Shown here: positions 46,280 through 49,954 of the stretch, piece after piece | How positions within the stretch are numbered: the first letter of the stretch is position 1 | How the letters are laid out: every line of letters starts with the position of its first letter | Origin: an uncultured archaeon | Lineage (GTDB): Archaea; Asgardarchaeota; Lokiarchaeia; Sigyniarchaeales; SOKP01 | Assembly: GCA_964486045.1 (NCBI GenBank) | Contig: CAZALK010000024.1 | Location: forward strand, 1-53,066 | DNA length: 53,066 bases | Reading direction: 5' to 3' | Notes under the pieces: model-generated | The model's database searches: none | Told to the model about the DNA's origin: nothing | The model's input: only the letters and a program-made list of their open reading frames with translations | Position numbers and translations under genes: made by a program

Positions 46280-47023
46280 ATGAAATACTCGAAAAGAGTG
46301 CATATTATACCCATAGGTGATGATGAAATAGATAGGATTGTTATTCCAGCTGAAATTGGAAAAGCTGATCGTATATATCTCGTTACAAAAAAAGGAAAGA
46401 ATCTTTTTGCTGATTTAGTAAAAAATTCTAAAAATGTCATTTTAACAAATAGAATAGTGAGGAAGGAAGATCTAATCGAGATCCAATGTGATATATTTAA
46501 TTTTACAGAATTACTTCAAACATTTGCTAAAATAATAAAAACAGAAGTAAAAGAAGGTAAAAATAAAGTATTTTTTAGCCTTTCAACTGGAGGTAATTTA
46601 ATGAGCGCAGCAGGAATGCTTTCTTGTATTCTTTTTGATGCTGAACCATATTTTTTGGTTAAAGATTTTAAGAAAAATAAGATTCCCGTTAACCCCGAGA
46701 TCTTGCCCTTCCCAAAATATAATGTCATTCTTCCTGAGAAATCTCTCATTAATTTTTTATATTCAATGAAAGAAAAAATGAAAATGGATGAAGTAGAAAT
46801 ATTATCAAAAAGGCAGTGTTTATATTTAATGGAGCAATTACACCCTAATGAAGTGTTTTCAAAGACTTCAGGGGATTATAATAAATTGAAATTTAGGTAT
46901 CTGGATAAATTAGAAGAGAGGAAATATATTGAAATAGAAAAAAAACCTCGCGGAAAAATCAGAATCACTAACGATGGTGAATTCGCCCTGAAAATCTTTT
47001 CTATCTATTTTGGATTGGATTAG
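46280..47023 (+). CDS. DUF6293/HFX_2341-like regulator (CARF-like Rossmann domain plus wHTH)
   Basis: RVHIIPIGDDEIDRI, ADRIYL, SLSTGG, C-terminal LDKLEERKYI...ITNDG wing. Confidence 0.78.
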   Translation: MKYSKRVHIIPIGDDEIDRIVIPAEIGKADRIYLVTKKGKNLFADLVKNSKNVILTNRIVRKEDLIEIQCDIFNFTELLQTFAKIIKTEVKEGKNKVFFSLSTGGNLMSAAGMLSCILFDAEPYFLVKDFKKNKIPVNPEILPFPKYNVILPEKSLINFLYSMKEKMKMDEVEILSKRQCLYLMEQLHPNEVFSKTSGDYNKLKFRYLDKLEERKYIEIEKKPRGKIRITNDGEFALKIFSIYFGLD

Positions 47024-48044: not shown

Positions 48045-48125
48045 AATTGCATCCAGATGAAGTGTTCTCTAATACTTCAGGAGATTATAATAAATTAAAA
48101 TTTAGGTATTTAGATAAATTAGAAG
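48045..48125 (+). pseudogene. 81-bp relic of a DUF6293-like paralog
   Basis: 70/81 identical to 46836..46916; reads LHPDEVFSNTSGDYNKLKFRYLDKLE. Confidence 0.85.
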
Positions 48126-48191
48126 GAATAGAAGGAATATTAATAATAATTTGTAAGACAGAAAAAATAATTTTTAACAAGATTAAACCCG

Positions 48192-48254
48192 ATGGAAATA
48201 AAGATTAAAGGAGCAAGAGAAAATAACTTAAAGAACATTATAAATCTTTTTTAA
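48192..48254 (+). pseudogene. UvrA N-terminal fragment
   Basis: MEIKIKGARENNLKNIINLF*, the classic UvrA start motif. Confidence 0.8.
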
Positions 48255-48298: not shown

Positions 48299-48332
48299 AA
48301 CTTTGTCACGTTGAGGTGACAAAGTTTAAATA
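48299..48332 (+). promoter_or_regulatory. Perfect 11-bp inverted repeat abutting a TATA-like box upstream of actin
   Basis: AACTTTGTCAC-gttgag-GTGACAAAGTT (48299-48326); TTTAAATA at 48325-48332; extra half-site TTTGTCAC at 48280-48287. Confidence 0.7.
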
Positions 48333-48508
48333 TGGGATTTAATATGATAACAATAACAAATAAGTTTTGTTTAAGTTGGAATTCTTAAAAAGCTTCATGA
48401 ATACTTACTGGTAGATGATTTAAGAAAAAATCACGGTAAAAAAATAATCTGCTATCTATAGTATTATTTATTCCACCAGCAAAACCTTATTGTGAAAGTT
48501 AAATTAAA

Positions 48509-48514
48509 GAGGTG
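48509..48514 (+). promoter_or_regulatory. Shine-Dalgarno GAGGTG for actin
   Basis: Canonical archaeal SD 8 nt before the in-frame ATT at 48523. Confidence 0.65.
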
Positions 48515-48522
48515 GTAAAAAA

Positions 48523-49668
48523 ATTTCAGTCAACGGGGATTTATTAAAAAAAAGAGCAATAGTTTTAGATAATGGAACGGGAATTTCGAAAAATGGGTTT
48601 GCGGGCGAAGATCAGCCACGTTCAGTATTTCCTACCGTAATTGGAAGGCCCAAATACGAAAATATCATGCCTGATGTAAAAGATTATTCGCGAGAATGGT
48701 ATATTGGGGGGGAAGCAACTAAACTAAAAGGGATTATGCACCTCCAATATCCCATCGAACACGGAATAATTGATGACTGGGGAGCTATGGAACGAATCTG
48801 GAATTATACTTTCTATACTGATCTTAGAATTGATCCTTCGGAATTTCCTGTTCTCCTAACAGAGGCTCCATTAAATCCTAGATCAAACAGAGAAAAAATG
48901 ACAGAGATTATGTTTGAAACTTTCAATGTCCCTGCTATGTATATTGCTACTCAAGCAGTCTTGTCACTTTATGCATCTGGACGCGTAACTGGTTGTGTTA
49001 TCGATATAGGTGATGGTGTTTCTCATGTGGTACCAATTTTTGAAGGATTTGCTTTAAGTCATGCAATTCAGAGGATTGATCTAGCCGGGCGAGATGTTAC
49101 CCATTATCTACAAAGGTTGCTAAGACAAAGAGGTTATAACTTTGAAAACTCAGGTGAAAAGGAAATTGTAAGAGATATAAAAGAAAAGCTCTGCTACGTA
49201 GCATTAGATCCTGAGAAGGAAATCATGCTATCAAAGAGGGTTGCCGGAATGGAAAAGAGTTATATGCTTCCTGATGGAGAAGTCATTAATATAGGCATTG
49301 AAAGGTTCTTAGCTCCTGAAAGTTTATTTAATCCAAGCGTACTTGGGAAAGAACTCGACCCTTTAGATGATGTAATAGTTAATACTATTTCTGATTGTGA
49401 AGTGGACTTGAGAAGGGATCTTTACAGTAATATTGTTCTTTCTGGGGGCTCAACGATGTTTCCTGGAGTAAAAGAACGCTTAACTAAGGAGATTAAAGAA
49501 CAGATTCCTGAATCAGTCGATATTAAGATAGTTACTCCTCCTGAAAGGATGTACTCTGTTTGGATTGGAGGGTCAATATTAAGCTCTTTGAAGTCTATGA
49601 ACAGGATGTGGGTCACCAGGCGAGATTATAAAGAATTAGGCCCTGAAGTGATTCACCGGTGTTTTTAA
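48523..49668 (+). CDS. Eukaryote-like actin (Lokiactin-type), 381 aa, probable ATT start
   Basis: [25 protein letters not shown] (upstream of the ORF-track ATG), [56 protein letters not shown]. Confidence 0.95.
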
Positions 49669-49954
49669 AATAACTACACAGAATTTGAGGGATGATAATG
49701 ATGATGATAACAATTGTGTGGATGGATGGGATTCCATGTATTTTATTGCCTGTGGGAGCAATTTCATTTGCTGATATGGGAATAAGCAACCCTACAAACT
49801 CATCACGACATAAGAACTATACAAAACTGCAAAAAATTAAGGAGAACGATTGCCTAAGAGACCTATTAGGAGAACTAAAGGATAAATTTAAAGACAAAAA
49901 AAAATAATAACCTAATTATTGCTAACTAACAAAATTTTTTATTAATTTTTTTAC

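Follow-up and report, generated by a model that had tools for sequence, protein, structure and literature searches.

Actin is a flagship eukaryotic signature protein of Asgard archaea. Where does translation of such a gene begin when the reading frame holds none of the usual start codons ahead of the conserved domain? The question is raised by a gene in the window, the whole 53,066-nt stretch of DNA analysed here, which is contig C24 of the genome G000 (5.18 Mb in 45 contigs). The gene is an intact second actin paralog, of lokiactin type, of an Asgard archaeon, and its translation very probably begins at ATT 48523 behind a strong Shine–Dalgarno (SD) sequence.

The actin frame and its start region

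After the TAA that shuts it upstream, the actin frame reads AGA GGT GGT AAA AAA ATT(48523) TCA GTC AAC GGG GAT, and between this stop and the ATG at 48667 it holds no ATG, GTG or TTG (Table 1). An open reading frame listing with ATG/GTG/TTG starts gives 48667..49668 and 333 aa, and one with table 11 starts, which include ATT, gives 48523..49668, an ATT start and 381 aa. By a rough estimate, a stretch of 53 codons lacking all three canonical starts has a chance of ~10% and is not rare alone; the missing start gains its weight because part of a conserved domain is encoded ahead of any canonical start codon, and because relatives show the same. The Pfam Actin family (PF00022) matches at 1.1e-126 over profile positions 5–407 of 410, the alignment beginning at residue 16 of the stop-to-stop translation, i.e. 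at 48553. Solved actins align with the window protein from end to end (E about 1e-153 to 1e-172), with the ATT as residue 1 and the match beginning at residue 11–12. About 38 core residues are therefore encoded upstream of the ATG at 48667, and with them the first beta strand, phosphate-1 loop and D-loop region. The distance to the ATT is 8 nt from GAGGTG (48509–48514) and 6 nt from the end of GAGGTGGT.

Table 1. Features of the actin locus and of the aIF1 gene; positions refer to the window unless another contig is named.
Feature	Position	Strand	Basis or remark
Perfect 10-bp inverted repeat ACTTTGTCAC-N6-GTGACAAAGT, probable operator adjoining the TATA box	48300..48325	+	
TTTAAATA, probable archaeal TATA box	48325..48332	+	(Nearly) invariant in all aligned loci, directly after the palindrome
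Putative long 5′ leader, about 170 nt, conserved sequence blocks	48355..48508	+	Alignment
Upstream mini-ORF of 5 codons, ATG AAT ACT TAC TGG TAG	48397–48414	+	
In-frame TAA, shuts the actin frame upstream	48505..48507	+	Sequence reading
SD GAGGTGGT	48509..48516	+	Complementary to the genome's 16S 3′ end ...GGATCACCTCCT
A7 run in the spacer, last A being the first base of ATT	48517..48523	+	Formal −1 slippery heptamer with GTG 48512
ATT, probable initiation codon	48523..48525	+	Orthologue conservation
Actin paralog CDS	48523..49668	+	381 aa, N-terminus (M)SVNGDLL...
First canonical start in frame, ATG of an internal Met, residue 49	48667..48669	+	Naive gene caller's choice
Conserved small ORF, 71 aa, 3′ of actin	49692..49907	+	Alignable motifs among loci
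TrmB-family HTH protein, 474 aa, candidate locus regulator	49955..51379	+	Pfam TrmB 6e-10, residues 221–278
aIF1/SUI1 gene (L199)	G000:C1:612478-612693	-	No ATG/GTG/TTG before the zinc knuckle; ATT 8 nt past GTGAT

The ATT start had been proposed in an earlier note made from the letters of the window, which placed the phosphate-1 loop upstream of the first ATG, found no canonical start between the stop and that motif, saw GAGGTG 8 nt before the ATT, took 381 aa for a normal length and described the rest of the gene as intact. Frame reading, the alignments and the near-complete Pfam match bear this description out, and its expectation that gene callers truncate this actin is borne out by the differing database versions listed below.

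The 381 aa are indeed the length of the main lokiactin, the other of the two close actins of G000. This gene (G000:C1:345094-346218) has an ATG start, encodes the widespread lokiactin N-terminus MAEEESFLNAKALVVDNGTG and belongs to the same Pfam family; its protein is 82% identical to the window actin and its ATG aligns with the window ATT. Nearly all of the ~140 loci fetched from public genomes and metagenomes are of this main type and start with ATG, or with TTG in two of them (L076 and L240), behind a weak AGGCTGA motif. The window actin is of a less common type, whose N-terminus reads (M)SVNGD(F/L). A third actin type (loci L229–L238; 76–79% identical) occurs in several family members; its N-termini read MAENE.., MEELKF.. 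and MADHEQ.., and its ATG starts stand behind GGAGG.

Candidate ATT, ATA and ATC starts across the genome

To see how other genes of G000 begin, we took all frames between two stops that span 120 codons or more and kept the codons that precede the first canonical start by 10 codons or more. Among these, ATT, ATA and ATC are concentrated 7–8 nt past AGGTG, with 37 cases (about 40 genes). The spacing optimum is identical for ATG (57 within 5–10 nt) and TTG (22), and it is also the spacing found in the window actin. The ratio of optimal spacing to background was 3.4 for the three ATH codons as against 0.78 for other codons (Fisher p = 3e-9), and the control codons AAT, TAT, TTA, AAA and TTT showed no spacing peak after AGGTG. 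A spacing-resolved test was needed for this, as a crude genome-wide SD rate per codon gave a modest enrichment of ATT only.

Protein domains lend support to part of these candidates. In 8 of the 20 scanned, a Pfam domain has its first profile positions ahead of the earliest canonical start; these genes encode a Ras-type GTPase, a DegT aminotransferase, a JAB domain protein, CdhC, an ETF subunit, a ferredoxin–ETF fusion, a NucS-like protein and a DsbH-like protein. Three (L192, L194 and L195) are ambiguous, their Pfam domain beginning after the first canonical start, and one (L191) was rejected as an internal fragment of a nickel-insertion protein. In cdhC, encoding the ACS/CODH beta subunit (G000:C8:29116; L187/L243), the ATT stands behind AGAGGTG and is private to this genome, the codon being ATG in 29/29 family relatives. 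Recent turnover from ATG to ATT does thus occur, and against this background the long fixation of ATT in the actin paralog stands out. The gene of aIF1, the initiation factor that proofreads start codons, similarly lacks a canonical start (Table 1); the Ras-type GTPase gene beside it, at C1:612993, needs an ATA or ACG start. Overall, the ATT start is not peculiar to actin; it is one case of a genome-wide use of ATT, ATA and ATC behind strong SDs.

The genome itself calls for some care. G000 is a bin with 31% GC and 7.8% contamination, its 5.18 Mb compare with 2.8–4.3 Mb in genomes of the same genus, and the window's actin paralog is carried by only 1/10 of the same-genus genomes. On these grounds, the genome-wide start figures may pool two Asgard organisms, and contig C24 may be mis-binned. 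Looking for a special initiator tRNA that would serve AUH codons, we ran ARAGORN, which reported only 31 tRNAs in this intron-rich archaeal genome, with obvious false calls among them.

The start codon among orthologues

We gathered DNA of the paralog type from assemblies of JGI, ENA, Logan and NCBI and compared the codon that matches the window ATT. It is ATT in 17 different loci (the window, L081, L082, L083, L144, L146, L152, L167/168, L169, L170, L171, L172, L173/174, L175, L176, L177 and L201), TTG in five (L006, L178, L200, L202 and L231) and ATG in one (L054/L113). (A/G/T)AGGTG is kept before the ATT in all the listed ATT loci, L201 included, at a distance that varies among 6, 7, 8 and 9 nt. 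The A-run in the spacer is A5, A6 or A7; L082 and L169 have an interruption (AAAGAA), and other bases take its place in L170, L172, L175 and L152. Stop codons lie 1–2 codons upstream of the ATT in relatives, one codon ahead in L144 (TAA AGA ATT) and L173/174 (TAA AAA ATT). The varying spacers and the close stops imply that the sequence before the ATT is non-coding. At two loci, L167/168 and L170, the actin frame runs through the GTG of the SD, and this GTG may serve as the start there.

Downstream of the ATT, the picture is reversed. In the first 48 codons, synonymous codon differences outnumber non-synonymous ones in 16 of 18 comparisons, a pattern indicating that the segment is conserved as protein and under purifying selection. 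The start codon itself was studied in 16 ATT orthologues whose proteins are 77–92% identical to that of the window. A single codon is kept in none of the 12 internal all-isoleucine columns and in only 3 of the 197 residue-invariant columns; yet all 16 begin with ATT followed by TCA, despite the saturation of synonymous sites. A maximum-likelihood tree splits the ATT forms into three deep groups and places the ATG and TTG forms and the main lokiactin clade among them; its root is a midpoint only and sets no direction for the start-codon change. The ATT of this paralog is thus old and held at the nucleotide level.

Does the codon then mean anything? If the ATT start is real, it could still be without regulatory meaning, the result of drift under relaxed selection and AT pressure with the strong SD compensating for the weaker codon, and we give this reading somewhat less than an even chance. 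The SD-led ATT, ATA and ATC candidates, about 40 in a lineage of 31% GC and with housekeeping enzymes among them, speak for it, as does the private ATT of cdhC with the recent turnover that it shows. On the other hand, the actin codon is ATT and never ATA or ATC in any of the 16 orthologues, and such codon-level invariance is left unexplained by neutral drift. Furthermore, the main lokiactin has retained ATG at almost every locus seen, and the ATT forms carry AGGTG where most ATG and TTG forms carry the weaker AAGGGG (GGTGGG in L231).

A very unlikely alternative is that translation starts at GTG 48512–48514, one base off the actin frame. The A7 run (A_AAA_AAA) would then lead into that frame, either because ribosomes shift there by −1 in a programmed manner or because the transcript slips. 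A −1 shift would have the right effect, 48517–48523 is a formal slippery heptamer, and L167/168, where the run is A5, has the GTG in frame without any shift. However, spacers of 6 to 9 nt put the GTG in differing frames relative to actin, and the heptamer, present in the window, L081, L083 and L171, is absent or altered in L082, L169, L170, L172, L175, L144 and L152; with both elements varying among orthologues, a conserved programmed −1 frameshift site was rejected. In L144 and L173/174 a stop separates the GTG from the ATT, the GTG lies within the SD and lacks an SD of its own, and no downstream stimulatory structure was found.

Still less probable is that this contig shows ATT through faulty sequencing or assembly, or through a private mutation from ATG. 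The earlier note had held out a point mutation or assembly error as the alternative and proposed to check it against the start codons of related assemblies. A single base separates ATT from ATG, but the start region is identical in the independent assemblies L081, L083 and L171, and the 17 ATT loci come from many samples; close orthologues clearly do not all have ATG. Equally improbable is that the gene is a pseudogene or encodes a truncated actin starting from ATG 48667, as a naive gene caller has it (P0053, 333 aa), since that product would lack the first strand, the phosphate-1 loop and the D-loop region that align to solved actins, the 48 codons upstream evolve under purifying selection, and the 381-codon frame is intact in 19 of 20 translated loci (L152 has 379). 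Initiation at the ATT is thus supported by the 17 ATT loci, the upstream stops and frame changes, the ATG and TTG codons of sister forms and, as detailed below, two GenBank annotations.

Precedents, annotation and regulation of the paralog

How could an actin be made from such a codon? In the mechanism that we propose, the SD GAGGUGGU would pair with the 3′ end of 16S rRNA and bring the AUU, 8 nt further on, into the P site, where initiator Met-tRNA would read it with a third-position mismatch; the product would be the 381-aa (M)SVNGDLL... protein, collinear with the ATG-started main lokiactin. The AUU would lower the initiation rate, aIF1 level would modulate initiation there, and the level of the paralog could thereby be tuned relative to that of the main actin. 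AUU is generally a weak start codon. As ATT is, in addition, held in the paralog while the main lokiactin holds ATG, the ATT start most likely serves to hold translation of the regulated paralog down, possibly at a level sensitive to aIF1. That it limits actin dosage is plausible, although this role is weakened by the central enzymes, e.g. CdhC and ETF, that also appear to start at ATT or ATA, and AUH starts may not be very weak in this genome. A wider and rather doubtful reading is that this Asgard group has a relaxed start regime set by aIF1, itself AUU-started in a feedback like that of IF3/infC or of eIF1, in which a regulated actin isoform has long been kept on AUU.

Bacteria offer classical examples of AUU starts that follow an SD, known from infC (encoding IF3) and pcnB of Escherichia coli and from ebpA of Enterococcus faecalis (PMC4447247). 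As in these genes, the probable AUU start of the window actin is properly spaced after an SD, a downstream ATG has wrongly been taken as the start, and a weak start is used, or proposed, to attenuate expression. The actin resembles AUU-initiated genes in having no canonical start before the domain, an SD-spaced AUU and conservation of that codon among orthologues. A fidelity-factor gene is itself AUU-started in both settings, infC in E. coli and apparently aIF1 here. The host, however, is an archaeon with eukaryote-type aIF1, aIF1A and aIF2 and not IF3, and the use is genome-wide, in tens of genes as against a handful in bacteria.

The closest precedent is the tubulin AtubA of an Asgard archaeon of the Kariarchaeaceae, for which a 'rare ATT start codon' was inferred (Sci Adv 2026, PMC13394414). 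This gene, too, encodes a cytoskeletal protein of an Asgard archaeon; the deposited version is missing the first beta strand, and an upstream ATT plausibly spaced from a ribosome-binding site restores the N-terminus (PMC13394414). AtubA, however, concerns one gene in one genome, inferred from a fold model (PMC13394414), whereas the actin ATT is conserved across 17 loci with codon-level statistics and in a different Asgard class. What sets the present case apart is how deeply, and down to the codon, ATT is conserved on an actin paralog with regulation of its own.

In the literature searched, AtubA is the only printed precedent of an ATT start in Asgard archaea (PMC13394414). A 2020 review of archaeal translation names only AUG, GUG and UUG as starts and describes SDs as not prevalent in a Loki genome (PMC7531240); ribosome profiling of Haloferax saw near-cognate sites but set them aside (PMC7261190). 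The same literature contained no experimental case of AUU initiation in any archaeon. Eukaryotes, in turn, use near-cognate (non-AUG) initiation, and eIF1 regulates its own synthesis through a poor start context. By analogy with its eukaryotic homologue eIF1, aIF1 could be a stringency factor sharing weak start sites with its targets, with the difference that start selection here is SD-anchored and does not involve scanning. With genes of this kind, the stringency of start-codon choice can be tested directly in the archaeal forerunners of eukaryotic initiation.

In public databases, the paralog circulates in at least six lengths or N-termini: 333 aa (P0053, with 31 members, starting at the Met of ATG 48667), 365–368, 374, 381, 384–385 and 415 aa. 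The entries of 384–385 aa begin at the GTG inside the SD, and that of 415 aa is a false upstream extension. Two GenBank CDSs, P0017 and P0021 (GCA_048882605.1 and GCA_048940845.1), begin at this very ATT, and the correct call is thus already silently present in some annotations. Many entries are missing the first beta strand together with the phosphate-binding loop, or are falsely extended, and such entries provide wrong sequences for cloning, folding and placement in trees. The deeply conserved AUU start, the tens of further ATT, ATA and ATC starts and the lack of a canonical start in the aIF1 gene together suggest that gene finders need another start model for this lineage.

The surroundings of the gene set it apart as well. 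The core of the palindrome, TGTCAC-N6-GTGACA, is kept in 19/19 aligned loci of this actin type and the palindrome occurs only once in the 5.18-Mb genome; transcription, we infer, starts about 25 nt downstream of TTTAAATA. An ORF of 64–71 aa follows this actin type in at least 10 loci, with the motifs DGIPC..LP, F..LQ..KE and ELK.KFK; the small ORF of the window has no Pfam family, and its 71-aa protein may be a partner of the actin isoform. The gene order of actin, small ORF and TrmB-family gene recurs in relatives. The palindrome looks like a dedicated operator, perhaps for the TrmB-family gene two genes downstream, and we take it to resemble the TGM palindrome of Thermococcales, a TrmB-type operator. 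The main lokiactin has no such palindromic operator, small ORF or TrmB-family gene beside it. On account of these features, of which the operator is unique in the genome and the small ORF conserved, we read the paralog as a separately and specifically regulated actin isoform, and one that merits study.

The leader gave few clues to further regulation. The ~170-nt segment is present at many loci, including the window, but L170, L172, L175 and L176 have an ATT start without it. The single leader sequence has no significant fold (z = 0.32), an Rfam search of it gave nothing above noise, and RNAalifold on 10 leaders reached −1 kcal/mol with one weak pairing to the SD that lacks covariation. An SD-sequestering switch or riboswitch in the leader is unsupported by these results, and a candidate anti-SD, CCACC at about 48475, was dropped as not conserved in relatives. 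The conserved blocks of the leader include GGTAGAT.ATTT.AG near 48409–48425, and the upstream mini-ORF is kept in L081, L169 and L167. The short leaders of L172 and L176 are almost identical, yet their proteins fall in different subclades of the tree, which hints at recombination in the 5′ region. Further upstream, a short ORF at 48047–48208 repeats the C-terminal winged-helix part (...SGDYNKLKFRYLDKLE...) of the DUF6293/HFX_2341-like gene at 46280–47023 and looks like a partial duplicate or a gene remnant.
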